DNA of 64,000 nucleotides, taken from Nitriliruptoraceae bacterium. Its GTDB lineage: Bacteria > Actinomycetota > Nitriliruptoria > Nitriliruptorales > Nitriliruptoraceae. Both the position numbers and the translations under genes were made by a program. How positions within the stretch are numbered: position 1 is the stretch's first letter; every line of letters starts with the position of its first letter. The stretch is taken from NCBI GenBank assembly GCA_041685735.1, contig JAWLFE010000007.1, positions 1,397 to 65,396 on the forward strand, in the 5' to 3' direction. Shown one piece after another: positions 1,813-33,228 of this stretch. The notes below the pieces were generated by a model. It worked only from the letters and a program-made list of their open reading frames with translations, was not told the DNA's origin and made no database searches.

Positions 1813-4800
1813 TCAGGACGGTTCGTCGTCGGGTTCGCTCTCGTCGGGCTCTGCGTCCTCGGGACCGTCGTCGGATGCGTCGCCATCCAGATCCTCGGCC
1901 TGGTCCTCCTCCACTTCCTCGCCGGCATCGCTGCCACTGAAGGAGCCCTGACTGCTGGCCGAGCTGTCCGGGTCGTCTCCATCGGATGACGACCCGGATG
2001 ACTCGGAGCCGTCGACCTGGCCGTCTTGCGTGCCATCCGACGTGCCGTCGGACGTGCCATCGGTGATCGGGCCTTCCGACGTGTCGCCGGTCGTGCCGTC
2101 AGCCGGATCACCGTCCGTGGCATCCGACGTGCTGTCAACCGAGTCCACATCGTCGCCGCCGGCGCTCCCCGGGTCCGGGCTGTCCTCGTTGTCGCTGCCA
2201 CCCTCACCGTCCGTGCCACTCCCGCCGTCCGTGCCACCCTCGCTGTCCGTGCCACCCTTGCCGTCGGTGCCACCCTCGCCGTCGGTGCCACCCTCAGCTC
2301 CGTCAGCGTCCTGCCCATCGGCCTCCTGACCGTCGAGGTCTTCGGGGTCACCCTTCTGCGTGTTCGCCTCAAGGCCTTCCTCGTCGTCCTCGCTTGGCAA
2401 TGCCGTCAGCGACACCGTGGTGCTGAAGGACTCCGCGTCGTCGGCCGGCACCTCGATCGAGGTGTCCTCGTAGCCATCGGCGAGGACCTCCCAGGTGCCC
2501 GGCTCGACGCTGCTGAAGGTGTAGACGTTGCTGTCGGGCGGTGACACCGGGGGGCCCAGCATGAGCGGGTCCTTGCTCAGGCGCACGTCCGCGTCGGTGA
2601 CCGGTTCGCCGTCGGAGGTCAGGGTGAGCTCGACCTCCTTGGTGAGCACACCGATGCCGCCGAGATCCACCTCGACCAGGGTGGTGCCACCCGGGGCCAC
2701 GTCGAGGTTGCCGCGCACGATCGCGTCCTGGCCATCCGGGACGATGTCGAGGGTGAAGCGGTTCTGCGGGAGCGAGTTGCCGTCGCCGGGAACCAGGTCC
2801 TCGAACTCGATGACGGCGGTGCCATCCCCACCGAGTTGGACGGCCCGGTCGATCCGGCCGTCGGCGTTCAGGGTCGGGAACGGGGTCTGCTCGGACAGCG
2901 ACACCGCGACGTTCTGGCCGGGCTCGCCGCCGGTGATGCTGAGGTCGATCTGTCCGAGAGCGGTCGGCAGGGTCTGGTTGAGCGCGAGCTCGACGGTGGT
3001 GTCACCGCTGAGCGCGATGTAGCGGGTGACCGGCTGCGCGTCGTAGCCGGGCGGCGGCGCGAACGTGACCGCCCAGGTCTGGCGGTTGTCCAACCCTGCG
3101 AGGGTGTAGCGACCTTCATCGTCGGTGGTCGCCGTGACCGTGCCGACGCCACTGACCGCGGTGATGGACGCGCCTTCGACCCCGGCACCCGACTCGCCAA
3201 CGACCTGTCCACTGACATCGACGGTCGTGGTTGGGAGCACGATCTCCAATTCGTTGCGCGGTGACTCCGGGCTGTCCTTGTGGATCTCGAAGGCGTCGTC
3301 GACAAGCGCGGTCTCGCCGTCACGCGTCGCGGTGATACGCCAGGTCCCCGAGCGCGCACGCAAGCGGTAGTTGGTTCCGTCCTCCTCAGCGGTCGTGCTC
3401 CGCGTCCAGAAGGACTCACCCTCACGATCGGCCTGGACACGGACCCCTTCGAGGTACACGGCTTCCGATCCTCGATACTCGACGACTCGACCCCAGAGAA
3501 CCGAGTTCTGGTCGAGCGAAATGTCGACCGTTCGCGTCGGATCGCCAACCCCTAGGGTCTCGGTCTCGACGCCGAACGCAGTGGAACTGTCTAGGTCCGG
3601 CTGATCAGCTTGGATATCCCAGGTGCCCGGCGCCAACGCCAGGACGACCGGTCCGCTGCTGGTGGTCGACCCTGAGGTGGTGTAGACAGGGTCGCTTGGC
3701 GGTGCCGGCTCGGTGCCGTCCCAGGTCGTCGTGACCTCGAACTCGGTGATCGTCGCCCCATCCGTGTCACTAGCCGTGACCTCGACCGTGATCGGGGTGG
3801 CGATCAGTGTCGTCGTGCCGAGGGCGTTGTCGCCGGTGTAGCCATCAACCTGCACGATCGTGTCGGGGTCGTACTCGCCCGCGTCGACGGTGATCGTCGT
3901 GTCCACACCCGGCGGGATGAACGCCGACCAGGTCCCATCGGTGGTGTCGACGGTCGGCCTCGACACGGGGTCGCCGCCCTGGGTGATGGTCACCGTCGCG
4001 TCCGCGGGCGGGTCGTTCCCGGTGGCGCCGGCGTAGTCCGACACCTGGACGGTCCCGCTGACCTGGGCGTAGCGCGTCAGGGTGAGTGTCTCGGCCACCT
4101 GGCCCGAGCCTGAGGAGACGGTGAGGGACTGACCCGTCTCGTCGACGTGCGGTGGATCCAGGACCGTCGCCTCGGACGTCGTCAGGGTCCAGGTATCCGG
4201 GGTCAGGGTCAGGGTCGCCTCGCCGGTGGATCCCGTGATCCCGTCGACCGTCTCCGTATCGGGCTCAGTACCGCGGGTCGCGGTCACCGTGACGCCGTCC
4301 AACGGCCCGCCACCGTCCGATGAGGTGACCGATACGACGACGTCCCGATCGGTGGGGGTCAGGGTCACGTCCTCGGTCCGCGCACCGGTGACCAAGGAGC
4401 CATCGACGTTGCGGTCCGCGGGCTCGTGATCGGTCGCCGACCAGGCCAGGTCCGTCGCCACCAGTTCCGGTGCGCCGACCTGCCAGGTGCCGTCCACCGC
4501 CGTGGTGGTGACGCCGTTGGCGCCCTGAGTGACCGCCACCTCGGCACCACCCAGCGGTAGGTCGTCGGCGCCCGAGAGGACCGTTCCGTTGATCTCGGCG
4601 AAGGCGGCGATGGGATCAGCAGGTTCGAATGCATCTGAACCCGCGGGAACGTTGAGAGCCACACCCGCGAAGTCGACGTGCGGCAACGTCAGGGTTCCAC
4701 CATCGAGCGACGACAGGGTCCAGCCACCCGGCGCCAACGCATCGTCGCCGACGAAGCGCGCCACCGCGTCGCCATCGACGATCTCGACAACCGACACGGT

Positions 4801-7800
4801 CCGGTTCGGAGTGCCGTCGCGGTCGGCCTCGATCTGGAGACCCACGAGCTCAGCCGCCCCGACCACGGAGGTCAACGTCAGCACGACATCACGGGGTTCA
4901 CCGAAGAGTTCGACCGTGAAGGCCTCGTCGATGGAGCCACCGGTGTAGGTGTTCTTGTCGATCTCCACCTCGCCGTCGGCGAAACCGTCGAGCACGAAGT
5001 TGATGAGGACCTCACGGTTGCCCTGCGTGGGAACGTCGTTGGGCAGCCAGACCTGCCACGCTCCACCGGCGACCGTTGTCTCTGGATCGATGAGGACCGG
5101 GCCATCGACCAGCACCCCATCCGGGTCGCTGACGCTCACCTGGACACCATCCAGCAGATTGTCGGACCCATCCACCACGGTGCCGGATGCGCCGAAGTAC
5201 GGCTCGAGCGTGATCGTGGCCGTGAGGGTCGCGCCATCGTTCAGCGGGACCGTCAGCGCCTCCGCACCGGGGTCAAGGTGCGGACGGACCGGGAAGTCCA
5301 GCGTCGCCGCGTCCGGAACTGTGAACTCCCACGCTCCGGGGGCCAAGCTGAACGTTGCGATCCCGCCGCTCGTCGCGGCCGTGACCGGGCCCGGACCTGG
5401 CGGGGTCTCCGGGCCGTCGTACGTGGCAACCACATCCACGCCATCGAGGTCGGTCGGGGAGATCGTGGTGACCGCCGAGCTCAGCGACACCTCGACGTCG
5501 ACCTCTTCGGCGGTCAAGGTCCGATTGACGGTCGCATCCGCATTGGGCAACAGGATGAGCGCACCATGGGACTCCGTGACGTAGCCGTCGAGCGAGAACT
5601 CGATGGTGTAGGTCTCGGTCTCGTCGGGTTCGACATCGGAGAAGCTGTAGGTGCCGCCACCGGCCGTGGTCGTCTCGAGTGGAACTCCATCCGGGGACGT
5701 CAAGATGACCTTGACACCATCCTGCGGCGACGCAGCGCCACCGTCGAAGTCGCGGGTCGAGACCGTGCCGGAGACCGTTGCCGGCTCGAACGACAGTGCC
5801 ACGTCCAGCTGCCGCGCCTCACCGGGAGCCAGGGTGATGATCTGGGACTCGGAGGCGAACCGGCGATCGTCGGCGTTGACGTCGTGGAAGAACGTCAACT
5901 CGTACTCGCCGGGGACCAGATCGGCGATGGCGTAGGAACCGGCGTCCGTTCCGTCACCAGGATCCGTGGTCGTCGTGGTGAGAGGGGTGAACCCCGCATC
6001 CTGTGTTCGGTCGATGCTGACGGTGATCTCGGTGCCTCCAGGGCCGTACATGACCTCGCCGTTCGGCCCGGACACCAGGCCGGCCACGGAGGCCGGCTCA
6101 GCCTGCAGGGTCGAGGTTCCGACGTCGGTCTCGGTATTCAGCCCGAAGGTCAGTTCCTGATCGGTGATCAGCGACTCATGGTCCAGGGACTCGAACAGCA
6201 GCTCATACCGATCGCCGACCGCCGCCACCGCCGTGCAGGTCAGCCCGCCGAACCCGTCGGGCACACATTCCTGTCCCGTCAGCGGTCCGTCGCGCGGCGG
6301 GACCTCGAAGGTCGACGGGAAGACGAACTCGCCAGGCGCCCCGCCCGGCTCCGCGACAACCGGCTGTCCGTCGGGTTCGATGACGATCGGGTCACCGTTG
6401 GCATCCCGGACGGCATCGATCAGCGTGACCGTGACCTCGCCGGTGGCCACGTCCAGTGGATCGGCGTCGTCGTTGTAGTTGATGATGCCGTTGACCGACC
6501 CGGTCACCTCACCGTAGGCATCCACAACCAGGGGGTCGACCAGCCGGTAGCCGACGGTCCCACCGTCGGTGCCGCCGAGCAGTTCCAGGTTGGTGGAGGT
6601 TGCCGTCAGGAACCCGGCCTGCTCCACGCGGAGCCGATGCAGGTAGGCGGGGAGGTCGCCGAAGAAGGAGGACGTGAACTCGCCCAGGTCCACCTCGACG
6701 AAGGTGACGAGCCCATCGCTGCACCCCGGCCCCCCGGTCGTGTCCGTGGGGACGTCACAGGTCGTGAGCGTGGCGATATCCGCGAACTGCGGCGCGGCGA
6801 AGATCGGGAACGGAGCACGCTGCAGCGTCACCTCGACACCGGACCGTGGCCCCGTTGAGTTCCCCGCAGCATCGCGGCCGAGCACCTGTCCGCGAACCAC
6901 GCCCGTCCGATCGACCTGCGTATCGGGCGCGGCGATCGTGAAGTCAGGGTCGGCGGCCGGCGGCACGGTGATCGACACGGTGCGGTCGACGATCCGGTTG
7001 AAGTCGTCCGTGTACGCGGCCTGGTCGAAATCGCCCTCGATCGAGAGCTCGAAGGCACCGGGCGTGACCGGATCCGGGAAACTGAACGACCCGTCGCTAC
7101 CAGGGGTGACCTCCTGAGGCGTGACGCCCACCCCGTCCAGCGTGACCGACAACCCGGTGAAGATGTCGGCGTTGGCGGTGACATCCAGGTCCTGCATGAA
7201 GGCTGGGATGTTCGCGTCCGCGATCGCTGGATCGAGGGTGATCGTCCCGCTCACGTTGCGTGGCAGGGCGGTCATCTCCACCTCCTCGATGATCAGCGGG
7301 CGGTTGCCGTCCGCGTCCTCCTCCGGGGTCTCGAGCTCGAAGGAGGCCTCGTCGTCCGGGGGCAGTTCCACGGGCTCGAAGCCGGGCGCGTAGATCTCAT
7401 AGCGGATCGGGCCTGGGCGGAAGAACGGGGGGATCGTGAAGTCACCGGTGGGCGTCGCGCCATCGCTGGCAAGCCAGAGGTCATCCTCCGGCTGGGTGGT
7501 CAGGTCTCCGGTGAACACCGTCGAGCGCACGACCCGTGGATCACCGACGAGGTTGCCGTCCTCGTCACGCCAGCCGAAGTCGAAGTCGCCCAGGACGGCA
7601 CAACCCGACCCAGGACAGGTGGTGGAGGTCGGGCGGAAGAACGGCGCCTGCTCGAGCTGCTCGAAGACCGAGGTGCCACGGACGCGCAGGAGCGCCCCCG
7701 GCACCGGGGTGTCGGCCTCGACCTCGTTCGCCGACCGGTAGCGCAACTCGAAGGTGACCTCCTCCGGGTTGGGTTGGAGGATGGCGTTGATGGTCCGGGT

Positions 7801-10800
7801 GTCGTTGAACTGCAGGCCGGCGATCGACTCGAAGCCCTCGGGCTGTCCGGGGCCGCGGGTGAACGTGCCGACGTTGGTGGAGATGACCAGTCGCCACTCG
7901 AACTGCGTCTCGCCCACGTCGGCGGGGATCCGATCGATCCGGTACTGCCCCCGAGCGAGCGTCGATCCCTGGTCGTCGTTGCCGCTGAGGCGAGGTGTCG
8001 GAGCGCCCTCGGGGAGCGGAAGGACGTTGCCGTCCTCGTCCACCCGTTCGAAGGTGATATCGGAACGCTCGACATCGATCGCGTCCAGGCCTTCATCGAT
8101 CGATGACGGTGCGCGCACGTTGCCCTGGACGATCGCGTACCGGCGCAGGTTGGGGTCCAGGCGGGTGGTGGAGCCGGAGTCGATGTCGACGCGGCGAACC
8201 AAGCGCTCGTGGTCCAACGGGACCGTGGTCGCACGGAAGCGCGTGTCGTCGGCGCGGTCCTCCTGGTTGGTGGGGGTCACCAGGACGAAGTTGCCGGTGC
8301 CGAAGGAACGGGTGAACTCGACATCGCCGACGGCGTCGGTCGACGCACACAGACCGTCGAGGGTCCAGTCCTGCCCGTCCAGCTCGAACGACCGCGTGCA
8401 GGCCGAAACGTCCTCGTCCAGCTCCTCCACGCGGGGCGGCGTCCGGCCGTCAGGTTCGTAGACGAACGGGTCGGGGACGACGAACACCTCAGCATCGCCC
8501 ACGACGGCGGACTGGCCCCCGGTGATCCGCAGCGCCAGGCTGCCGAGTGCCGTGATGTCGATGATGCCGGCGTCGGAGACGTCCTGAGCGGAGACGCGGA
8601 CAACCTCGGTGCGCATGTCGTAGCCGGGCGCATCGATCCGGACGGTGGCCGCGCCGGCGCGCAGCCCCGAGATGAGAAAGGCGCCCTCGGCAAGGGTCTC
8701 CGTGACGGCGTCCGGCTGGCCGTCGACGGTGATCACGGTTCCAGCTGGCGGGTCGAAGGGCTCCGATGGGTCGGCGGCGTCCCGGATCACGGCCTGGATG
8801 CGCCCGGCATCGTCCGGGACCGCGGCGGTCAGGCGCATCTGGATCGTGTCCTCGTCGGCCACCTGTGCCAGGGAGGCGGCATCCGCGTCCGGGTCGTCGG
8901 GTGGTGGCGCGGCGGCGGCATCGCCGGGCAGGGTGAGGATGTCGCCGGGTTCGGTGGCAACCTCGTAGAACTGGGAGACGTACCCGAAGCGCTCGAAGCG
9001 GACGAGGTACTCCCCGCCAGGCACACCGGAGAGCTGGAAGCTGCCATCACCGGTCGCCGAGGTGGTCCGCAGCGTCGTGTCCTCGCCGACGAGGGTGACA
9101 CCGACCCCGCCACAGGGCGCCAGCACGGCACCGCTGCGTTGCTCCGGGAACTCGGGGTCCGGGTACCGACAGCCGCCGCCCGGCGCGACCTCCTGGGTCA
9201 CCACACCCTGGACCACGGCCGTCGAGGGCCGCAGGTCGCTGACGTCGACCCGCACGTCGCCGCGGTCGACCACGACCTCCGCGGTCTGGGTCAGCCAGCC
9301 CGGAGCGGAGAAGGTCAGCTGGTAGGTGCCGAAGGTCAGGGCGGGGAAGTCGAAGGTCCCCGCCAGTTCACCCTCGGTGAGGGTCGTCGTCTCGCGTTCG
9401 GTCGGGTTGCCCTCCAGCGCGACCCGAACCCCTCCGACGCCCTCCCCGCGGTGGGTGACCCGTCCTCGGATCGTGCCGAGACCACCTTCGAGTTGGGCGT
9501 CGACCCCCGTGAGCTGCTGCCCACCGTCGAGGTCGACCGACAGGGTCGCCGTGGCGAAGCCGCGCTGCCGCACGATGACCTCGTAGGTCTGCGGCGTGGC
9601 GATCCCGGAAACCGACCAGCTGCCGACGTTGCCCTCGGTCGCCGAGGTGGCGCTGTAGATGAGATCGCCGTCGGTGATCGTGATGTCCGCTCCACCGATC
9701 GGGCTGCCACCTGTGGTGGTGACCGACCCGGACATGCTGCCGGCGGCCGGGTCGAGGAGCAGCTCGACGTCGACCTCGGGTTCCTCCTCGGACGTCGTCA
9801 CGACCCGACTCGCGACCTCGAACCCGGGCCGGGTGGCCGTGACCCGGTAGAAGGCGGGAGCGATCAGCCCATCGGCGAACCGGAAGGTCCCACGATCGTC
9901 GGTGGTCGTCTCGATCCGGTCGATCACCTGCCCGAGTGGCAGCCGGACCGAGGTCAGGGCCGCCAACCGGGTCTGGCCGTCGCCGTTCTGCGGGTCGGTG
10001 GTGCCCGCGTCCCCGAACGCGACACGCTCGATCACCACGGAGGTCCCCTCCGGGTCGGCGGGACCATCGACCGTGCCCTGCACGATGGCGTCGGTCTCGA
10101 AGCCGACACCCCGCGCGCCGATGCGATCACGCTGATCGTCACCGAAGTCGGGGGCCACCAGGAACTTGGCGAGCGGGATGTCGTCGGCGTTCATGTGCGT
10201 CGTGATCGCCACGACCGCGGATGCCCAGAGCGCCAGGACCATCACGAAGGCGACGACCTTGAGGAACAACGGCGACAGCACGGGTTGCTGCGTGAAGGAG
10301 GCGGCGGCCGTGACCGGTGCACCGTCGCTGCGCACGGAGATCAGAGCACCGTGCCGGATCTCGCGGAACCAGGACCGTCGGGTGCGCTCCACCCGGGTCG
10401 GGACCGGCAGGTCCTGGCCGGGATCGAGGGTGATCTCGTCGACGTAGAAGCTGACCTCGATGCCTTCCCCGGCACCATCGAGGCGGACGTGGATCGGGTC
10501 GGACGAGCGGTTGTGCAGGATCGTCTGCAGCTTGGCCGAACGGCGTCCCCGACTGGTCGGCGGGGTGACCTCGACGGCAACGTCCGGGCGATCGCCGACC
10601 TGCATGGTGGCGGTGACCGCCGCCTGTCGATGTGATCCGTCGGGGTCTGTGACCGTGAACCCGATGCGGCGCTCGCCGGCGTTGGCCTCGAGCGGGACCC
10701 GGATGCGCACCACCGCGGTGGCGACCTGGCCGGGGTCGAGTACGACCAGCTCGTCGGGCAGGGTGATCTGTTGGGGATCGAACCCGCTGATCGTCAACGT

Positions 10801-10902: not shown

Positions 10903-10948
10903 GGGCGGACTCCACGAGGGCTGGTCGGACGCTTGAGGTATCGGCAGG

Positions 10949-16375: not shown

Positions 16376-16377
16376 CG

Positions 16378-23520: not shown

Positions 23521-23613
23521 TCGGGGTCGGGGTCGGGGGTCGGGTCGGGTCGGGGTCGGGGGTCGGGTCGGGTCGGGGTCGGGGGTCGGGTCGGGGTCGG
23601 GGGTCGGGTCGGG
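23521..23613. repeat. G-tract tandem repeat with unit tcgggg-tcggggg-tcggg-tcggg (23 nt, about 4 copies). It fills the intergenic gap between the DUF6760-like ORF and the second tube gene
   Basis: Read directly from the sequence. On the plus strand there are 16 consecutive G-runs of 3-5 nt, each separated by TC. The plus strand is the template strand for this operon, so the mRNA carries (GACCC)-type C-tracts. The array begins right after the TGA at 23614-23616. Confidence 0.9.
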
Positions 23614-23793
23614 TCAGCTGGTGGCGGAGCTCGTCGTACGGTCACGCCCGCGGCGTTCCAACTCGACGATCCGTCGCACCATCCGGGTGCGGTTGCGGTG
23701 TTCGAGGTCGAGCAACTCGTCGAAACTCCAGTGCAGGTGGTAGGCGAGGAAGGCGATCTCGTCCCACAGTGCGGTCTCTGGGTAGCGCTTCAT
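23614..23793 (-). CDS. Small conserved CIS-associated protein (59 aa, DUF6760-like)
   Basis: Below the track's size cut-off. My translation is MKRYPETALWDEIAFLAYHLHWSFDELLDLEHRNRTRMVRRIVELERRGRDRTTSSATS. Its ATG overlaps the upstream stop (ATGA at 23790-23793). Confidence 0.6.
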   Translation of the reverse strand: MKRYPETALWDEIAFLAYHLHWSFDELLDLEHRNRTRMVRRIVELERRGRDRTTSSATS

Positions 23794-24344: not shown

Positions 24345-24421
24345 CTGGCCCTCCTGCGTTCGTCGTCGGTCGTCGAGTGGTCGGTTCGCGATCGGTGCGG
24401 GGCACCCTCAGGCATGCAGCA

Positions 24422-24453
24422 GGCCTGGGGGTCGCATCAACGACCCCCAGGCC
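24422..24453 (-). terminator. Perfect 13-bp GC-rich stem-loop 22 nt downstream of the first tube gene's stop; putative intra-operon attenuator or mRNA stabiliser
   Basis: GGCCTGGGGGTCG / loop CATCAA / CGACCCCCAGGCC, read directly. No U-tract follows. The next gene in the operon starts at 24344. Confidence 0.6.
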
Positions 24454-24475
24454 CGAACCTCCGTAGGTCGTGCTC

Positions 24476-24913
24476 CTACTTCCGTTCGAGGTACTCGTGG
24501 GTGATCGTCACTTCCTCGATCACGATGTCGTCGCTGCCGGCATCGAGGTCAGAGGCGGACCAGGAGCTGATCCACGCGGCCTCGAAATCCCAACGTCCGG
24601 TCTCCTCGCCGGCGGCGTCGAACATCACGATCGAGCCGTTCTTGCGTTCGACCACGCCGTCGAGCACGGTCTGATACCAGTCGACGAGTGAGTTGTCGTC
24701 GGTCAGACCACGCTTGAGCGTGATGTCGTTGTAGGTGATGCGTCCGGGACGCTTCCGCGTCACGATCTCGCCGCTGATGGTCGTGTCCTGGAAGGTCACC
24801 ACCTCCGCGCTGTAGCCGAGTCCGGTGACGCCGGTGAAGCGTCCGATCTCGACCCCCTCCACCTCGAGGGCGAAGAGTGAGCCGAGATACTCCTGGTCGT
24901 GTTCGTCTGCCAT
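24476..24913 (-). CDS. Phage tail tube protein, first copy (Afp1/Cis1a-like)
   Basis: 145 aa. FALEVEGVEIGRFTGVTGLGYSAEVVTFQD...RKRPGRITYNDITLKRGLTDDNSLVDWY fits the T4 gp19-type tube family. Confidence 0.85.
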   Translation of the reverse strand: MADEHDQEYLGSLFALEVEGVEIGRFTGVTGLGYSAEVVTFQDTTISGEIVTRKRPGRITYNDITLKRGLTDDNSLVDWYQTVLDGVVERKNGSIVMFDAAGEETGRWDFEAAWISSWSASDLDAGSDDIVIEEVTITHEYLERK

Positions 24914-25012
24914 GTCCCTGTCCTGTCCTCGTCGAGTCCTGCGATGGGTCCTGCCTGGGTCCTGGCTGTGGTCGTGCGATGATCATGGTGATCGAGAAGG
25001 GGTCATCGACCC

Positions 25013-25042
25013 GGACCCCACGCCGATCACCGCGTGGGGTCC
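25013..25042 (-). terminator. Perfect 11-bp GC-rich stem-loop 10 nt downstream of the sheath gene's stop; putative intra-operon attenuator or mRNA stabiliser
   Basis: GGACCCCACGC / loop CGATCACC / GCGTGGGGTCC, read directly. No U-tract follows. Confidence 0.6.
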
Positions 25043-25051
25043 GCGATCCGA

Positions 25052-26620
25052 TCAGGCTGCGCTGTCCTTCAGCTGGCTGATACGGAAGATGACGAACTCT
25101 GCCGGCTTCACCGGCGCGATCCCGACCTCGACGATGAGCTTGCCCTCGTCGATCGAGTCCGGCGGGTTGTTGTCCTCGTCACACTTGACGAAGAAGGCCT
25201 GTTCAGCGGTAGCTCCGAACAGCGCGCCGTCACGCCACAGTCCCCGCAGGAACGCGCTGACGGTGCGCTTGACGCCGGCCCAGAGCTTCTGGTCGTTGGG
25301 CTCGAACACCACCCACTGGGTCCCGTCCATGATGGCCTGCTCGACCATGTTGAACAGGCGCCGCACGTTGATGTAGCGCCAGTCGGAGTCTGAGGAGAGT
25401 GTGCGCGCGCCCCAGACCCGGATGCCGCGGGTGCCGAAGGGACGGATGCAGTTGATCCCGATCGGGTTCAGCATCCCCTGTTCGGCCTTGGTGATGGACC
25501 GCTCGACGTCGAGCACGCCACGGATGACCTCGTTCGCCGGCGCCTTCCAGACCCCACGGGTCTCGTCGACACGCGCCCACAGGCCGGCCATGTGGCCCGA
25601 CGGCGGGATGAGGATCTCGTCATCGCCGTTGGTCGGAACCGGGTTGGCGACCTTGATCCAGGGGTAGTACAGCGCCGCGAACGCCGAGTCGTACATCGCG
25701 ACGTCCGAGCGCCACTCCTTGATGTCCTGGACGCCCATGCCCGGAGGTGCGTCGAGCACCGCCATGCGGTTGGCCTGACCCTCGCAGTGGTTGATCAGCG
25801 CGGTCTGGACGGACTTCCACATCCCGAGGTCGACCGAGCCGTCCTCCTTGGTGGCGGCGGTGATCAGGTCGGGGATCAGCACCATCGTGACGTCGTCGGC
25901 GATGACCAGGCCGTTGATGCCCTGGCGCTTGGTCTCGGAACCGGCGAAGGCCGGCGCCTTGACCTCGACGGGCTCGCGCGGGGCCGGCTCGATCGGGTAG
26001 ATGCCGGCCTTGGGCATCGCCAGGGTGATGTCGAGGTCGTCGGTGATCTCGACCTTGGTGGCGACCTTCACACGCTCGGAGGATTCGGTGACCGTGTCCA
26101 CGACGTTGGTCGGTCCGTCGGTCAGGGTCAGCCCGGCGTAGCTCTCGACGACGACGCCGTCCTGCAGGACGCTGAGGTCGAAGACCGGGTCACCGCCGTC
26201 TTCCTCGGGCTCCGCCGGGTCGATCGCGATGGACAGGCCGTCGGCCGGGCCGATCGACTCGAACTCGAGCACGTCGCCGATGGCGCGGTCAGCGGCGGGC
26301 AGACCGAGTTGACCGGGCTCCTCGGAGGGGCGGTTGTGCGGGACCCGCACGATGTAGCAGACCGAGCCGCCGTTCAGGAACCAGCCGTAGACCGCGTGCG
26401 GCAGCATCGCCCCCGGGACGAACCCGCCGTACAACGCTTCGAACTGGTTCCAGTTGGTGACCAGGCGCGGCTTCAAGCCGTCGGGATCATCCGGGTCATC
26501 ATCCGGCGCCCGCTCCGTGAAGCCCACGAACGCCGCGATGGCGGTCGCTCCGGCGGACAGCGATGCCGATCCAGACGGCACCTCTTCGATGTAGACCCCA
26601 GGGGTCAGATAACTGGGCAT
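25052..26620 (-). CDS. Contractile tail sheath protein (Afp2-4/Cis2 equivalent)
   Basis: 522 aa. The N-terminus MPSYLTPGVYIEEVPSGS and the C-terminal part (NPIGINCIRPFGTRGIRVWGARTLS...WRYINVRRLFNMVEQAI) are classic sheath signatures. GGAGGA RBS upstream. Confidence 0.92.
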   Translation of the reverse strand: MPSYLTPGVYIEEVPSGSASLSAGATAIAAFVGFTERAPDDDPDDPDGLKPRLVTNWNQFEALYGGFVPGAMLPHAVYGWFLNGGSVCYIVRVPHNRPSEEPGQLGLPAADRAIGDVLEFESIGPADGLSIAIDPAEPEEDGGDPVFDLSVLQDGVVVESYAGLTLTDGPTNVVDTVTESSERVKVATKVEITDDLDITLAMPKAGIYPIEPAPREPVEVKAPAFAGSETKRQGINGLVIADDVTMVLIPDLITAATKEDGSVDLGMWKSVQTALINHCEGQANRMAVLDAPPGMGVQDIKEWRSDVAMYDSAFAALYYPWIKVANPVPTNGDDEILIPPSGHMAGLWARVDETRGVWKAPANEVIRGVLDVERSITKAEQGMLNPIGINCIRPFGTRGIRVWGARTLSSDSDWRYINVRRLFNMVEQAIMDGTQWVVFEPNDQKLWAGVKRTVSAFLRGLWRDGALFGATAEQAFFVKCDEDNNPPDSIDEGKLIVEVGIAPVKPAEFVIFRISQLKDSAA

Positions 26621-26714: not shown

Positions 26715-27104
26715 TCACGGCACCTGGACCGTGAACTGGCCGGGCACGTTGATCTTGATCACGCCGCCGTAGGCACAGTTCAGCAGGCAGGAGTCGTTCA
26801 GCGCGGGCTTGTTGCCGATCGTCACCGTGGGGCTGCCCGGAGCCCAGGGGGCCGGGAGCACGGGGACGCAGGGCATCGGGGTCAGGACCCCGAGGGCAGC
26901 CGACGTCGCGGAGGCGACGGTCGGGTTCGACAGGGAGGTGCACATCCCGAACGGTGGGACGTTGACCATGGGCGCGTTGTCCATGATCGTGGCGGCGGGC
27001 GGGCCGCCGGCGTTGACCATCGCGGACGGAACGACGGACAGCGACGAGGGAGCCACACCGAAGGTGCACTGCAGCATCGCGCCACTGACGACCTGGTTGC
27101 CCAT
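26715..27104 (-). CDS. DUF4280 PAAR-like spike-tip protein (Cis10-like)
   Basis: 129 aa. MGNQVVSGAMLQCTFGVAPSSLSVVPS...PFGMCTSLSNP...PCVPVLPAPWAPGSPTVTIGNKPALNDSCLLNCAYGGVIKI matches the DUF4280 pattern. Confidence 0.8.
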   Translation of the reverse strand: MGNQVVSGAMLQCTFGVAPSSLSVVPSAMVNAGGPPAATIMDNAPMVNVPPFGMCTSLSNPTVASATSAALGVLTPMPCVPVLPAPWAPGSPTVTIGNKPALNDSCLLNCAYGGVIKINVPGQFTVQVP

Positions 27105-27680
27105 CTAGGCGCCCTCCTGTTCGGAGGTGGTCGGGTCGTCCTCGTCGTCGGCCGGATCCTGCGGCGGCTGGGGCAGCATGCGTTCGATGTCCGCCGTTCC
27201 CGCGACGACCGAACCGCTGACCACGTCACGGTCGGGGAACACCAGGACACACACGATCTGACGGTCCCCGACCTCGCTCTCGGCGTTCCAGCCGTCGAAG
27301 GTGGGCAGCATGTAGCTGAAGAACACGCCATCATCGAGGGTGAGCCCGAGCGAGGATTCGAGTTCGGTGAGGCAGGCACCATCGGCGAACGATGCCACCT
27401 CGCTGGCGCCGGGGTAGTCGTCATCGGGGTGGGTGACCAGCCCGAAGACCTCCTGGGTGTGCGGCTCGGCGCAGGGGACGATGTCGATCTGTGAGATCTC
27501 GCCGCTGACCTCGCCACCCGGATCGAGGCAGTCGCCCACCTCGAGCTCGAACACGGAGATCTCGCCGGGGTTGACAACCATGCCGTCCGCGTCGCGGATC
27601 TCGTCCTCGTCCGAACAGCCCAGCAGCACGACGGCGAGCGCGACAGCGAGCAGCACACGACGCGACGACGCTCGTCGCAT
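27105..27680 (-). CDS. Exported lipoprotein of the septum-formation-family type (GDC ... C..PH..EVF motifs)
   Basis: I trimmed the listed ORF to the ATG at 27680. MRRASSRRVLLAVALAVVLLGCS gives a signal peptide plus lipobox. Further motifs: ELEVGDCLDPGG, IVPCAEPHTQEVFGLV, DGACLTE. Its TAG stop directly abuts the PAAR-like gene's ATG (TAGATG). Confidence 0.65.
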   Translation of the reverse strand: MRRASSRRVLLAVALAVVLLGCSDEDEIRDADGMVVNPGEISVFELEVGDCLDPGGEVSGEISQIDIVPCAEPHTQEVFGLVTHPDDDYPGASEVASFADGACLTELESSLGLTLDDGVFFSYMLPTFDGWNAESEVGDRQIVCVLVFPDRDVVSGSVVAGTADIERMLPQPPQDPADDEDDPTTSEQEGA

Positions 27681-28053
27681 GGTCGCATGCGACGGAGCGA
27701 TGCTGGCACGCCTCGTCCCCCGACCCTCGGCACCCACCTGCGACACGACAACTCCTGGGACGAGGGCCGGTCATGCGCCCTGATCAAACGACCGTGACTC
27801 CGTCCACCTGAGCTGGACTCTAAGGGTCCAAGGCATCACGTTGCTGCGTGGTCGTGTCCCGGCCGACGTGTCGTGCGCTCTGCAGTGCTGCCGATGCGTT
27901 CGCCGCATGGTCGAACGAGCCGGTCACGGGCCTCGGTCCCGGACCGGAACCTCGGTCTCTCCTGCACCCTGCACCTGCCGAGGAACGCAGCCCGTCCCAC
28001 CGACGACCTCAGCTAGGTTCGCCGCCCCCCCCCAGCATCCCCGCAGAGGTTCC

Positions 28054-28400
28054 GTGCCCACGGCCCGTCACGACACCCACCGTCGAACACGACGGTCGAT
28101 CGCCCCTACCGGACGGTCCACGCGTCCGGCCGAGTCCTCCCCGTCCGGCCACCACGCCCAGGTGCTGCAGCTCCAGCAGGATGCCGGCAACGCCGCCACC
28201 TCGGCGCTGTTGGAACCATCGAACTCACCGGCCACGGGCGGGGCATCAGCTGGAACTACGAGATCGAGCTTGACACGGTCGCCATCGTCGATGGCCTCTG
28301 GGGGGTGATCTCGCGCTGGGGGTCCTGGCTCTCGGGGGTCTCCAGCTCACTGGACGACGCCCTGACCGATGAAGACGGCGAACCGATCAGGATCTTCTGA
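28054..28400 (+). pseudogene. Small ORF broken by a frameshift. The N-terminal part carries an LQLQQDAGNAATSALL motif and the C-terminal part is hydrophobic/amphipathic
   Basis: Frame 1 from the GTG at 28054 (AGAGG RBS) reads MPTARHDTHRRTRRSIAPTGRSTRPAESSPSGHHAQVLQLQQDAGNAATSALLE with good GC3. After about 28213 GC3 collapses in frame 1 and becomes very high in frame 3, which reads TIELTGHGRGISWNYEIELDTVAIVDGLWGVISRWGSWLSGVSSSLDDALTDEDGEPIRIF and stops at 28398-28400. The frame 3 segment has no start codon of its own. Confidence 0.4.
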
Positions 28401-28885
28401 TGGTCGACCTGCAGTACTACGGACTGCCTGACCTCGGGATCGATATCGCCGCCCCGACCGCGTGGTCGTTCACTACCGATGATGAGGTCGCCGATGCGGT
28501 GTTCTCTGCGGACGAGGCCCACGGTTTCCGCACCAACGTTGCGTTGACCCTCGACCGCCTGGATCCGCCGACCCCCGAACGCTTCGAGCAGATCATCACG
28601 GAGCTCCCCGAGATGCTGGCCGAACGCCACGACAACACCGAGGTACACCTCGACCGGCGGTTCGCGCAGGAAGGCATGCCGGCCTGGCTGGTGCGCTATT
28701 CGTGGCGGCCGGACGGGGCGGCGCACGCCGTCGAACAGGTGATGGCCCTGATCGTCGTCGATCTGGAGCAGGGCGCCGTGGTCCAGTTCGACGCCTCGAC
28801 GATCACCCCGCTCGCCGACGATCACCTCCGGCTGGTCCAGGCGATGCTCGGTTCGGTGCGGCCCTTCAAGGACAGCGACGCCTGA
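28400..28885 (+). CDS. DUF1795 / Eag-like (PsbP-fold) protein; candidate chaperone or immunity partner of the upstream ORF
   Basis: 161 aa. The ATG overlaps the upstream TGA (TGATG). The layout ...PTAWSF...FRTNVALTLDRLDPPTPERFEQIITELPEMLAE...GMPAWLVRYSWRPDGAAHAVEQVMALIV... resembles DUF1795 proteins as I remember them. Confidence 0.55.
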   Translation: MVDLQYYGLPDLGIDIAAPTAWSFTTDDEVADAVFSADEAHGFRTNVALTLDRLDPPTPERFEQIITELPEMLAERHDNTEVHLDRRFAQEGMPAWLVRYSWRPDGAAHAVEQVMALIVVDLEQGAVVQFDASTITPLADDHLRLVQAMLGSVRPFKDSDA

Positions 28886-28909
28886 ACCGCCCGCGGTCGG
28901 TCGCGGTCG

Positions 28910-31123
28910 CTACCTGCGCCGCAGGCCTCGCAACCGGAGCTTGGCGGCTGCCGCCGCTTCCTCGTGGCCGCTGTTGACGACCCGTTCGAACAGCTTGCGG
29001 GCCTCCCGAGCACGCTGCAGGCGCTCCAACAGGATCCCGAGGCTGACCGCCGCCATGGGGCCGATGTCCGGGTGGCCGCTGGCGATGGCCGCCCGGTACA
29101 GGTTCTCCGCCTCCTTGCGGCGTCGCTGCTGCTCCAGGAGCCACGCCAGGTTGTAGGCCGCCATCGGTCCGGCTTCCGGATGACCGCTGTCGACCGCCTG
29201 CTCGTAGGAGCTGATCGCCTCCTCGGTGCGACGCTGCTGTTCGTAGAGCCAGCCGAGGTTGAACGCCGCCATCGGAGTGGCGTCAGCGTGCCGGGCCGCC
29301 AGCGCCTGCTGGTAGGCGACCTCAGCCTCGCCGACCCGCTCGACGTCCTCCAGCACGCCGCCGAGGTGGAACGCCGCCATCGGTGCATGGCCGGCATGGC
29401 CACTCTCCACGGCGTGCCGGTAGGACGCCTCGGCGCGGCCCGCGTGTCCCTGCTGCTCGTAGAGCAGCCCGAGGCCGAACGCCGCCAAGGGCGCGACCTC
29501 ATCGTCGGAGGAACCGAGCGCGCGCTCCCACGCCTGCTCGACGAGGTCGGTGCGCTCGGCGGCCAGCGCCGCACGCCCGACCACGACCACCTGCTCCGGA
29601 GACACGCGGTCGATGATCGTGCGCCAGATCGACGTGGGAACGGGGCCCTCGAGCAGCGCGACCTCGTCGACCACGGTCGACGCGACCCGGTAGGAGGGCT
29701 CACCGGCACCGGGTACCGGGACGAGGAGGGTCCGGTCGGGTGCGACCTCGGCGGTGGCCCGGTCCAACGCCTCGTCGACGGGGTGCCCGTCGGGTGCTCC
29801 GTCCGATCCTGCCGCCGTCTGTCCGACCAGGGCCCGGATGAGATCCACGGGGACGGGACCATGCAGGCCGACCCGGTGCCAGGTGGCGGCTGCCGTGATC
29901 ACGGCAGCCAGGAGGGGGTCGTTCTCGCGGACCTCGCGGTAGCGGTCCCGCAGTTGATCGGCTGCGCCGAACCACGATGGCAACCACCGCAGCCGCGGGT
30001 TGAGTGACTGATCGGGGAACCGTCCGAAGGCACGCCCGAGTTCGTCATCGCTGAGCTCCGGCGACAGATCGTGCGCATCGGATGCGGCCCGCAACCACCG
30101 TTCGACCGGTTCCGCCACCAGGTCGGGCAGCCGCAGACGTGGCGCGGAGATGGTCAGCGCGACGATGCAGCCGGGCAAGCGGCTGACCAACCGGTCCAGC
30201 ACCGGCAGCGTCAATCCCTGACCCAGGTGCTCGTGCGCGTCATCGATCCACACGATGACGGGGCCGCGGTCTGCGAGGTCCAGCGACGGCACGGCGTCCG
30301 CGAGCGCTTCGAGCGGTCGCGCAGCCAGATCGTCACCCCCGGGCAGTGGAGGTTCGACCACCAGCACGGTGCGGTAGCCGGCCGCACGCCGCAGGGCCTC
30401 CCAGAGCGTGCGGCTGGTCCCGGATCCGGGGGCCCCGCGGACGACCACGACGCCACCGGTCGAGGCCAACGCATCAGGCTGGAGTGACCGGTCCAGCGCG
30501 GCATCGACATCACGGCGGACGTACGGGGGCTGGGCCTGCCCGACAACGCGCTGTGCGGTCGCCGAGGCCACGATCCCCACCTGAGCGGGGTCGAGATCGC
30601 CGAGCGGTGTCGGCGCCATGCGCAGGAACGGTCGATGCGGCGCGGGAACGGGTTCCGGCGCGGGTTCGGGTGCCGGATCGGGCTCGGGTTCCGGTTCGGG
30701 CTCCGGCGCCGGCTCCGGTTCCGGCTCGGACTCCGGCGTCGGCTCCGGCTCCGGCGCTGGCTCGGGTTCCGACTCGAGCTCGGGTTCCGGCGCGGGCTCC
30801 GGTTCGGGCTCGGGTTCCGGCGCGGGCGCGGGTTCCGGCCCCGGCTCGGGTTCGGGGTCGGGGGCAGGTTCGGGCTCGGGGTCGGGGTCGGGGGCTGCGG
30901 ACGACGGTTGCTCACCGACCGAGATGCCAGGGGCCGCACGCCGGAGCACCGCGAGCGTCAAGCCGCCGCCGGCCATCGTCAGGACGGCGACGACCACGCT
31001 GATCGACGGATCGGCACCGAACAGGATCGACACGAGCGAGCCGCCGCCGCTGCCGACCAGGGCCCATGCGGCGAGCTCCTGCCACGGACGGGAGCCGCTG
31101 GCCTGCGAGGCGGGATCCGTCAT
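28910..31123 (-). CDS. Membrane-anchored protein with two N-terminal TM helices, an 86-aa (PE)n linker, a degenerate P-loop NTPase domain and about 5 C-terminal TPR-like repeats
   Basis: 737 aa. ATGA overlap with the AAA+ gene's stop. TM helices: [17 protein letters not shown] and [20 protein letters not shown]. Walker A-like GAPGSGTS has Thr where the invariant Lys should be. Walker B-like [12 protein letters not shown]-like repeats are of the type Y..A..SGH....PMAAF.LG.L.E. Confidence 0.8.
30638..30895 (-). repeat. In-frame low-complexity (Pro-Glu/Pro-Asp/Pro-Ala)n coding repeat
   Basis: It translates as [34 protein letters not shown]...EPVPAP, residues 77-162 of the 737-aa protein. The DNA consists of ggctc/ggttc/ggcgc-type 6-nt units. 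Confidence 0.8.
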
Positions 31124-33228
31124 GTGCTCGGAGCCTCCAACAGGTACCGGAACTCACCCAGGTCAGCTGAGGACAGCTGCCGGCCGATCTTTCGGTGTTC
31201 ACGGATCGTGGCGCGAACCAGGTCCTCCATGGTCACCGGGCGTTCCTCGTCCGCAGCTCGGTAGGCGGCACTCACCACGACGTTGCGGATCTCGCTGCCG
31301 GACATCCGGAACCGATCGGCGAGCAGTTCGACGTCGACATCGTCGGCCTGCGGCAGTTCCGGCTGGAGCTTGGCCCGCCACAACCGCTGGCGTTGGTGCT
31401 CGTCCGGGCTCGGGAAGTCGACGATGGCGTCCAACCGGCGCATGAAGGCATCGTCGAGGTTGGCCGCCAGGTTGGTCGTCAGGATGGCCACGCCGTCGAA
31501 GGTCTCCATCCGCTGCAGCAGGAACGCGACCTCGACGTTCGCATGCCGATCCTTGGCGTCCGAGACAGCGGACCGCTTCCCGAAGAGCGCGTCGGCTTCG
31601 TCGAACAACAGCACGCCGTTGACCCGGTCGGCCTCGTCGAAGATCCGCTCGAGGTTCTTGGATGTCTCCCCGATGTACTTGTCGACAACGGTCGACAGAT
31701 CCACGAGGTACAGGTCGAGCCCGAGTTCCCCGGCGATCACCTCGCTGGCCAGCGTCTTGCCGGTCCCCGACCCGCCCGCGAACAGGGCACTGACGCCACG
31801 ACCGCGTGCGGCCCCGCGTCCCATGGCCCAGTCCTCGAGGACCTGGTCGCGATGGCGCCAGCGACTGGCGAGCTCGCGGAGTTGCCCGCCGATCTCAGCG
31901 GGAACGATCAGGTCGTCCCAGCGCGCCGTCGGCTCGACGCGGCGGGCCAGCCGCTGCAAACCGGCCGCGTTCTGCGACCGGGCTCCGCGTTGCACGTCGG
32001 CGTCGGTGATCGGCCGGCCGGATGCACGGGCCTGCTGCCTGGCTGCGGTCGCAGCACGTCGGATCTGACCCGGCGTCAGCCGGAACTGTGCGGTGGTCGC
32101 GACCGGATCGACACCGTCTGCCAACTCCCCGCCGAGGGCCGTCGACCACAGGTCGGCCTGCACCTCATCGCTGATCCGTTCCGCAGCGAGGACGACCGGG
32201 ACATCCGTCGACCAGGTCGGGTCCCAACCCGCCGCGCCGTACAACAGGACGGTCCCCTGCGTGTCCGCGAAGGCCCGGATGCCGTCGTCGCGACCGTCGA
32301 CCAACACGTCGACCGGGCCGGCGACCAGACCGGCGTCCCGCAGACGGGCCTCGCGACCAGCCGCGAGCGCCAGCGCGACGAGGTCCGCGTCGGTCGGGAC
32401 CTGCGACAGGTCCAGCGTGATGGCGGACCGATCCGACGCGGTCAGGGCGGCGACGGCCGTGGCAGCGGCGCCCGCACCGCGATGGTCGACGAGGTAGCCG
32501 AAGGTGGCACCCGCCTGCAGAGCCCGGGCCAGGTGGTCCGCAACCGGATCGGCCACCCCGACCGGATCGACCTCGCAACCACTGAGTGCCGCATCCGGGG
32601 TGTCATCACCGAGGAGATGCGCAACGACACGGTCCGGGACACGCAGGCTACGGGTGAGCATCGGTCGCTCGGGTGCCTCGATCGTGAGCAGTCCGGCGCG
32701 GACGAGCGGTCCCGCAGAGCCCAGCCGCGCCCGTCCCCGCCCGGATGCCATCGAGGCGCCGCAGAGCTGGAGGGCCATCCCGACCGTGGCCCGCCGGAGC
32801 GAGACATCGTCGTTGAGGTAGCCGTACAGGGGCTCGAAACGCTGGTCGAGATCCGGGGCCAGGGCGACGAGGAGGAGCTCGACGTCCAGCGGATCGAGCC
32901 CGAAGGCGTGGCGCAGGCCACGCAGGCGTAACCGGGCACCGGCAGCCTCGTTCTCGTCGGCGTCTCGTTCGGCCTCGACCAGCCAAGCGGCGGTGTCGGG
33001 ATCATCTGTGATCGGCTCGAGGGGCCCCGTCTCGAAGAGCTGATCGACCCGCGCGTCAGAGACGTACAGACCCCGGAATCGGTCGTCGGGATCGGCGCCA
33101 TCGGCTCGACGCCGTGTCACCTCGGCATGGACGCGCGCTTCGATGACCCCGAGCCGGTCGAGCAGGTGACGGACCGACGGATCGTCGTCGACGGCCGTTG
33201 TGGCCACGTTCACGCCTTCCGTCTCCAC
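31120..33228 (-). CDS. CIS-associated AAA+ ATPase (Afp15/Cis15-like)
   Basis: 702 aa. The C-terminal AAA module carries Walker [12 protein letters not shown] and Walker [16 protein letters not shown]. The long N-terminal domain ([37 protein letters not shown]) is typical of eCIS ATPases. The start is uncertain: ATG at 33228 or the GTG 5 codons downstream. Confidence 0.85.

Follow-up and report, generated by a model that had tools for sequence, protein, structure and literature searches.

The 64,000-nucleotide stretch of DNA described here (the window; contig JAWLFE010000007.1) belongs to a salt-lake actinobacterium of the class Nitriliruptoria (phylum Actinomycetota). Its positions 1813 to 33228 hold a locus which, as far as genes alone can tell, is probably a complete contractile injection system (CIS) of the Streptomyces-type subtype IId lineage, the "cytoplasmic CIS". 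The machine appears to be accompanied by a CisA-like anchor and by a trio of membrane proteins encoded after the cap gene, and these would bring it to the membrane. The CIS itself belongs to a known lineage; what is new is the enlarged, conserved trio, together with a CisA-like protein that has no ectodomain. What tells most about the locus is the kinship of the trio to the Sco4256-4258 family of Streptomyces, which an earlier annotation of the same DNA (the original prediction) had missed.

Genes were called from the GC content at third codon positions (GC3) and from the structure of the open reading frames (ORFs), and were then scanned with Pfam, which recovered the core modules with E-values from 1e-6 to 1e-37, well outside what chance would give. 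The parts named in the original prediction, that is, the sheath, two tubes, LysM protein, VgrG, DUF4280 tip, gp25, baseplate J, gpI, cap, ATPase and DUF6760 mini-gene, were all found where they had been placed, and the profile searches did not fail for any of the sheath, tube and baseplate families. The cluster lies on the minus strand, unless noted otherwise for a gene, and its first gene encodes an AAA+ ATPase (Cis15/Afp15-like; 31120-33228; WHD 4e-29, AAA 1.6e-23) that is 46-49% identical to the ATPases of Streptomycetaceae IId clusters. The DUF4280 PAAR-like spike tip (26715-27104; PF14107, 1.5e-34) precedes the contractile sheath (Cis2; 25052-26620; Phage_sheath_1 and Phage_sheath_1C), which aligns over its full length with the sheath of the S. 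coelicolor CIS (CIS-Sc) in PDB entries 8bky and 9gtp (6e-140 and 1.9e-137). Then comes the main tube protein (Cis1a-like; 24476-24913; Phage_T4_gp19, 2.1e-34), whose best PDB match is the tube chain of 7adz (5e-14), with the CIS-Sc tube chains next at 9e-12 and 3e-10. The second tube paralogue (23002-23490; Phage_T4_gp19, 2.3e-37) resembles Cis1b of the tube initiator layer: its best PDB match, at 7e-26, is 9gtp_a (Cis1b), a chain exclusive to the CIS-Sc baseplate entry.

The hub and the baseplate follow. They consist of a LysM tube initiator (Cis7; 21843-22508; CIS_tube 1.1e-25, LysM 9.6e-8), a VgrG-like spike of 607 residues in which gp27 and gp5 form one contiguous ORF (Cis8; 20020-21843; Phage_GPD 3.5e-11, Phage_base_V 1.2e-25), a gp25-like sheath initiator (Cis9; 19576-20007; GPW_gp25 4.9e-24; PDB 9gtp_V, 2.7e-36), a single copy of the baseplate J wedge protein (Cis11; 17645-19579; Baseplate_J 7.2e-18) and the gpI-like wedge protein (Cis12; 17094-17648; Tail_P2_I 1.1e-6; NCBIfam tail_TIGR02242, 9e-15). 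Baseplate J matches 9gtp_1K at 6e-144 over residues 1-639, with the second-best match, Anabaena All3317, at only 7e-7, and the sole PDB match of gpI is the CIS-Sc chain 9gtp_E (9.5e-5). The same holds for the cap, or tail terminator (Cis16; 15623-16375; Pvc16_N, formerly DUF4255, 1.7e-20), which matches only 9gts_0A of CIS-Sc (1.1e-14). For most parts, then, the best or only PDB matches are CIS-Sc chains (the S. coelicolor/S. venezuelae CIS), and the likeness to the Streptomyces cytoplasmic CIS that had been proposed is borne out.

Which subtype is this? Subtype IId is marked by one copy of afp11, an afp8 in one piece, the presence of a PAAR-type gene and the absence of afp6, afp13 and afp14 (Chen et al. 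2019, PMC6899500). The window has one Baseplate_J ORF, Phage_GPD and Phage_base_V in one ORF, and a tip gene; as regards afp6, afp13 and afp14, none of the ORFs has a match among the fibre and tape-measure families of Pfam, NCBIfam and PHROGs. The tip is here a DUF4280 protein, not a PAAR repeat, and is encoded upstream of the sheath gene. Pfam recovered all eight genes of the core set (tube, sheath, LysM, VgrG, gp25, baseplate J, AAA+ ATPase and cap), and all nine proteins of the S. coelicolor CIS atomic model have counterparts in the window, as do the PAAR-like tip and the AAA+ ATPase. In pairwise comparison, baseplate J is 41-43% and the sheath 45-51% identical to the proteins of the Streptomycetaceae loci. 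These comparison loci (L025-L028, four in number) were taken from a plasmid collection; the sheath-based genome scan used poorly conserved peptides and returned 18 close loci, none of them from Streptomyces.

The four plasmid loci and the window have a block in common, consisting of the genes for sheath, tube, conserved unknown, DUF6760, tube, LysM, VgrG, gp25, baseplate J, gpI and a zinc-ribbon membrane protein, and synteny is kept across the Nitriliruptoria, Acidimicrobiia and Streptomycetaceae loci. Likewise, CIS-Sc has a single baseplate J gene, a contiguous VgrG, neither an Afp13 fibre nor an Afp14 tape measure, the block of sheath, tube, conserved unknown and DUF6760, and membrane proteins of the CisA and Sco4256 types; it is described as lacking a conventional fibre and a typical tape measure (Casu et al., PMC10066040). 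There are also differences. Unlike in CIS-Sc, the cap gene of the window comes after the baseplate genes and does not adjoin the ATPase gene, the PAAR-like gene is of the DUF4280 type and lies upstream of the sheath gene and behind a lipoprotein gene, SARP, LuxR and DUF4157 genes are absent, a membrane-anchored TPR protein is encoded after the ATPase, and the host is a member of Nitriliruptoria, not Streptomyces. Furthermore, the Streptomycetaceae plasmid loci carry a long gene between the DUF6760 and second tube genes, whereas the window has a gene for 164 residues instead.

Other relatives stand farther away. The cytoplasmic CIS of Roseiflexus and Deinococcota belong to the same subtype IId clade and form cytoplasmic particles, with no close cisA homologue, but in other phyla (PMC12998442). 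Sheaths from Deinococcus plasmids are 41-44% identical to that of the window. Afp/PVC and the Anabaena CIS have the same core of tube, sheath, LysM hub, VgrG, gp25, baseplate J, ATPase and cap; Afp/PVC, however, have Afp13 fibres, an Afp14 tape measure, three sheath paralogues and toxin payloads. As cited in other work, the thylakoid-anchored CIS of Anabaena holds its particle at the membrane through transmembrane (TM) segments.

One member of the shared block, at 23790-24344 in the position of Sco4251, deserves a separate mention. CIS loci of Streptomycetaceae, Myxococcales and Planctomycetota encode proteins that are 45-53% identical to its product over the N-terminal ~96 residues, and none of its more than 3000 homologues carries a Pfam domain. 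There was no match in Pfam, NCBIfam or PHROGs, nor in a PDB search with the family profile; Foldseek found no neighbour either, with an AlphaFold model from 20 homologues that was poor (pLDDT 61.5) and is a weak test of the fold. The name "gpE-like chaperone" given to it in the original prediction could not be upheld, because the sequence and fold searches came back empty and the protein is gpE-like only by position after the tube gene. With homologues across CIS loci, it is nonetheless a real and widespread CIS protein. The following DUF6760 mini-gene (23614-23793; PF20546, 2.2e-10) is coupled to it by an ATGA overlap.

Two sets of membrane proteins set this locus in relation to the Streptomyces system, and the first is the product of 16378-17097. 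In CIS-Sc, the membrane adaptor CisA (Sco4242) is needed for firing, and it has a solute-binding-like ectodomain (Casu 2025); its cytosolic part is predicted to contact Cis11, and the ectodomain has been suggested to be a stress sensor (Casu et al.). The window gene overlaps the stop codon of gpI by 4 nucleotides and thus lies, as cisA does, directly after gpI/Cis12, a slot occupied in the same way in L025-L028. Its product, a tail-anchored protein of 239 residues with weak Pfam matches to DZR and Zn_Ribbon_1, has a disordered N-terminus, two CxxC...CxxC ribbons (the second being CWHC...CLRC) and a predicted TM helix at 219-237; CisA too starts with a zinc ribbon and has a second Cys-rich ribbon before its single TM helix. 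Profile comparison by hhalign with the CisA-position proteins of the four Streptomycetaceae loci gave a probability of 96.8% (E 3e-10) across the second ribbon and the TM helix, and direct BLAST against them gave low-complexity matches only, the level at which similarity to CisA outside the ribbon remains.

The end of the protein is where the two differ. In the Streptomycetaceae, the CisA-position proteins consist of an N-terminal ribbon, a long disordered linker, the second ribbon, the TM helix and an ectodomain of ~150 residues (discoidin or F5/8-type-C-like in L028). The window protein stops 2 residues past the TM helix, and all six aligned orthologues have the same layout and stop within ~12 residues of it. 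With the ~150-residue extracytoplasmic domain of the CisA family absent, the protein falls outside the published family definition; it is best called CisA-like and, by its ribbon and helix, is related to the membrane-proximal part of CisA.

The second set is the trio after the cap gene. Its members, a (13423-15630; 735 residues), b (10949-13426; 825 residues) and c (1813-10902; 3029 residues), are paralogues with a common N-terminal module of ~215 residues and one strongly hydrophobic helix (hydropathy peaks 2.6-2.7). Behind the helix, Pfam recognises 5, 6 and at least 15 CarboxypepD_reg domains, respectively, those of member c being spread over ~2560 residues and followed by an acidic tail of ~200 residues. 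The start of the giant gene had been placed at 11319; most likely it is the GTG at 10902, where the conserved N-module begins, and the overlap with the gene upstream is an open frame only. An AlphaFold model of residues 1-258 of member a (pLDDT 95.3) shows two β-sandwiches and a helix at 230-257. The module's Foldseek neighbours include 2qsv, RbmA, YadV and CupB2, together with ASH and Cep192-type immunoglobulin-like (Ig) domains, which are also weakly matched by Pfam in the Streptomycetaceae proteins.

How do these proteins lie in the membrane? None of the three has an N-terminal signal peptide. In 115 representatives of the family, the TM helix is preceded by 15 residues with on average 2.7 K+R and 0.3 D+E and followed by 15 with 1.7 K+R and 2.0 D+E, which is in keeping with the N-terminus being inside and the C-terminus outside. 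CarboxypepD_reg, SdrD_B and SpaA-type domains are found mostly in surface proteins, and the C-terminus of a family member from S. clavuligerus is a peptidoglycan-binding domain. In the C-termini of the trio, Pfam found structural β-sandwich arrays only and no toxin domain. The most economical reading is that the trio would be three type-II membrane proteins, with the tandem-Ig modules in the cytoplasm and the arrays outside it.

The same plan has been described in Streptomyces. The three proteins Sco4256-4258 closely resemble one another at the N-terminus, have one TM domain each and vary in the C-terminal part (Casu 2023, PMC10066040). Sco4256, annotated as "hydrolytic", has an Ig-like first domain of PapD type, a TM region and a variable third domain, and 2qsv, RbmA, YadV and CupB2 are the structures given for its first domain (Vladimirov et al. 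2023). A hidden Markov model (HMM) built from 24 N-modules matches, over profile positions 4-230, four Streptomycetaceae genes, each beside a IId cluster: a "hydrolytic protein" of Streptomyces sp. NBC_01324 (4e-38), a "hydrolase" of S. clavuligerus (2.5e-40), an ORF of the pSCAT plasmid (2e-40) and a Kitasatospora gene (2.4e-35). By this match, and in the last step by annotation and cluster position, the trio is assigned to the Sco4256-4258 family. In both, a tandem-Ig (PapD/ASH-like) module of ~215 residues is followed by a single TM helix, there are three paralogues per cluster, and in IId clusters they lie near the cap gene. The differences concern what comes after the helix: Sco4256-4258 end in a ricin or lectin domain within proteins of ~450-560 residues, whereas the trio has the CarboxypepD_reg arrays described above. 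The clades of the trio are also separate from the Streptomycetaceae copies in a neighbour-joining (NJ) tree. The Streptomyces proteins are called "CIS-associated effectors" (Casu 2023) or "putative toxin" (Vladimirov 2023), and homologues of Sco4256 have been reported in Chloroflexi (Vladimirov et al. 2023).

The family is large. A word-index search with the N-module missed it, giving two matches with the single sequence and only unrelated Ig proteins with the alignment, so that an exhaustive profile search was required; this returned 419 cluster representatives below 1e-30, and the trio variant accordingly appears widespread in metagenomes. Most of the 419 have the module at residue 1 and a total length of 700-900 residues, with a few giants of 3050 and 3227. 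Eight further loci were informative as to context, and in six of them (L002, L004, L005, L006, L014 and L031) cap or baseplate genes stand beside a family member. In L002, from a metagenome-assembled genome (MAG) of Nitriliruptoraceae, and L014 (Egicoccus, likewise of the class Nitriliruptoria, phylum Actinomycetota), the cap gene is followed by member a; in L004 it is followed by members of 733, 823 and 3050 residues. L005 and L006 have an operon of cap, 727, 910 and 2053 residues that is convergent with the genes for VgrG, gp25, baseplate J, gpI and a 141-residue zinc-ribbon protein, and in L031 a 913-residue member is convergent with the baseplate operon. The other two are L029, with members of 841 and 3227 residues, and L030, in which members of 957, 852 and 2457 residues adjoin a Septum_form lipoprotein gene; neither has a CIS gene in the DNA covered, which reaches just 1.4-2.5 kb on the upstream side.

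The orthologues of member c are the proteins of 3050 (L004), 3227 (L029), 2457 (L030) and 2053 (L005) residues. In the NJ tree of N-modules, members a, b and c form three clades, each common to the window, L004, L005 and L030, and because each clade spans these loci, the triplication predates their lineages and the gene order has been kept.

Some observations from the comparison loci concern the same slots. In L031, the CisA slot after gpI encodes a CarboxypepD_reg protein of 531 residues (12988-14583), and a Kelch β-propeller gene (7693-9951) lies ahead of the tandem-Ig family member; it seems that the kind of ectodomain encoded in the accessory slots is swapped from one lineage to another. 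In L028 (Streptomyces sp. NBC_01324), the gene for a 1065-residue PD40 β-propeller and DUF11 protein (13752-16949) overlaps the start of the cap gene, a further case of a large repeat protein whose gene is coupled to that of the cap.

What could such a machine do? We consider it likely that a Streptomyces-type cytoplasmic CIS works here with the CisA-like anchor and the membrane trio, docking at the membrane being the step that we infer. The particles would assemble in the cytoplasm, and the tail-anchored CisA-like protein would use its cytosolic part to bring the baseplate up to the membrane from within the cell. The trio would lie in the membrane with its N-termini inside and its C-termini outside; the Ig modules would contact the particle and the ectodomains would cross the wall, past which the 3029-residue member could project far. 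In this way the trio might stand in for the extracytoplasmic part missing from the CisA-like protein, be it by sensing the envelope state or by anchoring, and firing would take place at the producer's own membrane, by analogy with the proposal for Streptomyces. There, the particles float free and seem to dock only transiently via CisA (PMC12237407); firing kills the producer, and no stable anchoring is seen (PMC10066040, PMC12237407). The original prediction had called the system cell-associated and membrane-tethered, and what stands of this is that two gene sets are homologous to membrane proteins of the Streptomyces system; tethering itself would go a step beyond that homology. The adjacency of the trio to the cap gene may reflect contact at the cap end, or it may merely be an ancestral payload position.

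A bolder suggestion, made tentatively and quite possibly wrong, is that the Sco4256-type "effectors" are not lumen cargo at all. They would instead be a conserved heteromeric set of type-II membrane proteins that acts as an inside-out tail fibre: the Ig modules would dock the CIS, and the ectodomains, with 5, 6 and ~30 β-sandwich domains and a longest member that extends well past the wall, would report the state of the wall or surface and license firing, replacing the sensing by the CisA ectodomain.

Several points weigh against a membrane-docked machine of this kind, which is predicted here from genes. The hhalign match to CisA-position proteins spans only a generic zinc ribbon and a hydrophobic helix, the genes matched by the N-module HMM are plasmid-borne Streptomycetaceae homologues of the same NCBI name and position and not S. 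coelicolor Sco4256 itself, and the NJ tree of N-modules has no support values. No effector of a known class (DUF4157, Sle1/2, Tme) that could serve as the killing agent was found in the window. The slot after the cap gene is, moreover, the classical payload position of Afp/PVC operons. Cargo is also favoured by the triple mutant of sco4256-4258, with its empty tube lumens and its loss of stress-induced death, and by toxicity in E. coli (Casu 2023, PMC10066040).

These last points lead to the main rival, in which the trio are cargo effectors loaded into the tube lumen via their conserved N-module, as proposed for Sco4256-4258; on balance, this seems rather unlikely for the present locus. The profile match does place the trio in the Sco4256-4258 family, Sco4256 was detected in purified particles (Vladimirov et al. 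2023), and polymorphic effectors typically combine a constant N-terminus with a C-terminus that varies. Yet the C-termini of the trio consist of structural β-sandwich arrays and contain no toxin domain, and three orthologous groups have been kept in fixed order over deep divergence, with no payload-like turnover. The positive-inside TM helix, together with the peptidoglycan-binding and CarboxypepD_reg C-termini, points to export of the C-terminus of Sec type. As for size, it is estimated that, by volume alone, one unfolded 333-kDa chain fits the 268-nm tube, but a chain of 3029 residues with ~30 folded domains would be an unusual cargo.

It is improbable that the locus makes a released extracellular CIS (eCIS), similar to Afp/PVC and acting on other organisms, with membrane proteins that are unrelated and linked to it by chance. 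The core is indeed the eCIS set, subtype IId was first classed as eCIS (PMC6899500), and sheath and tube proteins have been found in the extracellular fraction (Vladimirov et al. 2023). However, the locus lacks an Afp13 fibre, genes for lysis or a holin, and any recognisable toxin. In unrelated contigs, the trio and the CisA-like gene are again linked to cap and baseplate genes, one instance being a separate operon of cap and trio, and the closest characterised relatives, in Streptomyces and Roseiflexus, are cytoplasmic (PMC10066040, PMC12998442). The term "fibre-less" used for the system originally is right in that no gene of a fibre family is present, and debatable in that the slot after gpI is taken by the tail-anchored CisA-like protein and the β-sandwich arrays of the trio may be membrane-rooted analogues of fibres.

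Might the machine fire outwards? A membrane-anchored CIS discharging into neighbours, in the manner of a type VI secretion system (T6SS) in a monoderm, would use the giant β-sandwich proteins as a trans-envelope conduit or contact sensor. Six genes for TM proteins or lipoproteins (1813-10902, 10949-13426, 13423-15630, 16378-17097, 27105-27746 and 28910-31123) make up 58% of the coding length; the original prediction had counted seven such genes and a share of well over half. The giant ectodomain is estimated to be long enough to exceed a Gram-positive wall, and outward reach has been raised as a possibility for the long Sco particle (Vladimirov et al. 2023). Even so, we regard outward firing as very unlikely, since the locus has no ClpV-type recycling ATPase and no TssJLM-like complex, it does have a cap (Cis16) and a baseplate J gene, and the Streptomyces CIS, which shows no stable anchoring, is lethal to its producer on firing (PMC10066040, PMC12237407).

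A degraded prophage tail or tailocin cassette, although every core gene is a phage-tail homologue, is rejected on housekeeping flanks and gene content: the 64 kb have no capsid, terminase, integrase, lysis or fibre genes, the only tRNA gene is 6 kb off and past PurN, the GC content is uniform (0.66-0.72), the cap, AAA+ ATPase and DUF6760 are CIS hallmarks, and synteny is kept in Nitriliruptoria, Acidimicrobiia and Streptomycetaceae.

The remaining accessory genes are of several kinds. Downstream of the ATPase gene, and coupled to it by ATGA, 28910-31123 encodes a membrane protein with two N-terminal TM helices, a linker of ~100 residues made of a (PE)n repeat, a degenerate P-loop region (Walker-A-like motif GAPGSGTS; weak Pfam match to nSTAND_NTPase5) and C-terminal TPR repeats, matched by Pfam TPR families. 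Its homologues occur, among the related loci, only in those of Nitriliruptoria (L008, L009, L012 and L014). The NTPase-TPR part resembles that of the SARP-type regulators of Streptomyces CIS clusters, but the window protein is membrane-anchored and has no DNA-binding domain. An ORF of 161 residues on the plus strand (28400-28885), with high GC3 and a gene in the NCBI record, has no match in Pfam, NCBIfam or PHROGs and was not found in the related loci; its membership in the system is uncertain.

Next comes a Septum_form lipoprotein (27105-27746; PF13845, 1.2e-7) with a signal and the lipobox LLGC, whose gene abuts the DUF4280 gene (TAGATG). Loci of Nitriliruptoria and Iamiaceae preserve this pairing, and the gene that adjoins the trio in L030 is similar. 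The possibilities for this lipoprotein are immunity, a target or a partner of the tip.

The fast-evolving gene for 164 residues (22511-23005) lies at a tape-measure-like or effector slot that separates the second tube gene from that for the LysM protein; it has homologues in close relatives only and no family match in Pfam, NCBIfam or PHROGs. In Nitriliruptoria, this slot holds a gene for 82-240 residues; the long gene at the corresponding slot encodes 908-1383 residues in Streptomycetaceae and ~570-1600 in Iamiaceae, Thermomicrobiales, Myxococcales and Planctomycetota, and in Kitasatospora it bears DUF4157. The idea of a truncated tape measure was abandoned, as the protein has no similarity to the long genes of L017, L019, L022, L024 and L025-L028.

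Two small membrane-protein genes on the plus strand (528-1244 and 1302-1781) are convergent with the giant gene. Homologues of the two adjoin its orthologues in L004 (47-48% identity) and L029, where the arrangement is likewise convergent, and in the Egicoccus loci L008 and L014 a gene of the 1302-1781 type is found upstream of that for the ATPase. These two genes may belong to the system, which would extend the locus past its earlier left boundary.

The CIS locus sits in the chromosome amid housekeeping genes. The flank at higher coordinates carries genes for malate dehydrogenase, FolD, PurH and PurN and, farther out on the same side, for a NUDIX/YjeF protein, Ppx, enolase, MazG, a peptidyl-prolyl isomerase, an ABC permease and Mfd. 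GC content is ~70% throughout the window. The sole tRNA gene, tRNA-Leu(UAA), is at 39453-39539, and no other Rfam family was found in the window. As the original prediction had reported, there is no fibre, long tape-measure, integrase or transposase gene, now over positions 1-64000, where capsid, terminase, holin and endolysin genes are absent too; the fibre gene and lysis cassette that could have made a tailocin or prophage of the locus did not turn up elsewhere in the window. An identical sheath protein is encoded on contig JAWLDM010000006.1 of assembly GCA_041686595.1. Among species-representative genomes, the nearest loci are in Nitriliruptoraceae and Egicoccus MAGs (sheath identity 84-89%), followed by Acidimicrobiia and Iamiaceae (73-75%).

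The locus had been described as a long chain of translationally coupled genes. All 12 junctions listed in support of this are correct, eight being overlaps (4-nucleotide ATGA/GTGA, 1-nucleotide or 8-nucleotide) and four having gaps of 0-2 nucleotides. The chain is nevertheless broken by a gap of 1163 nucleotides (27747-28909), with the plus-strand ORF inside it, by gaps of 94, 138, 131 and 123 nucleotides around the sheath and tube genes, by 46 nucleotides ahead of the giant gene and by 12 between the VgrG and gp25 genes. Since four-base overlaps also join housekeeping genes in the same window, the coupling is ordinary for a high-GC operon.

A scan for terminators and promoters gave nothing exceeding the shuffle background. 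Perfect GC-rich hairpins follow immediately on the stop codons of the sheath gene (gap 24914-25051) and the first tube gene (gap 24345-24475); they have no T tails, and the terminator scan did not call them. As attenuators or mRNA stabilisers, they might set the ratio of sheath to tube to baseplate. A tandem repeat (GACCC/GACCCC)n on the coding strand (23524-23615), with ~4 copies of a 23-nucleotide unit, occupies most of the 123-nucleotide gap between the DUF6760 and second tube genes. Among ~16,400 codons examined, the single TTA is codon 100 of the AAA+ ATPase gene (32929-32931). A lone TTA codon and a nearby tRNA-Leu(UAA) gene recall the bldA control of Streptomyces CIS clusters. Such control was dropped as an explanation, as the codon is not kept in the ATPase orthologues of Egicoccus or Streptomycetaceae.

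The literature offers few points of contact: none was found that links contractile injection to carboxypeptidase regulatory-like proteins or to Nitriliruptor, and on Sco4256 in the context of CIS only the 2023 studies were found. The locus bears on two questions about these systems: how does a free-floating particle meet the membrane, and what do Sco4256-4258 do? For both, it provides a natural variant, in one case a CisA-type protein cut down to its cytosolic part and anchor, in the other Sco4256-type proteins enlarged to as many as 3029 residues of surface-type β-sandwich repeats. That distant lineages keep a fixed trio beside the cap gene does not sit easily with a role as simple tube cargo. 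With this locus, the Streptomyces-type CIS would extend to the Nitriliruptoria and thus beyond hosts with filamentous growth and complex development, the ones for which its role in cell death has been proposed.

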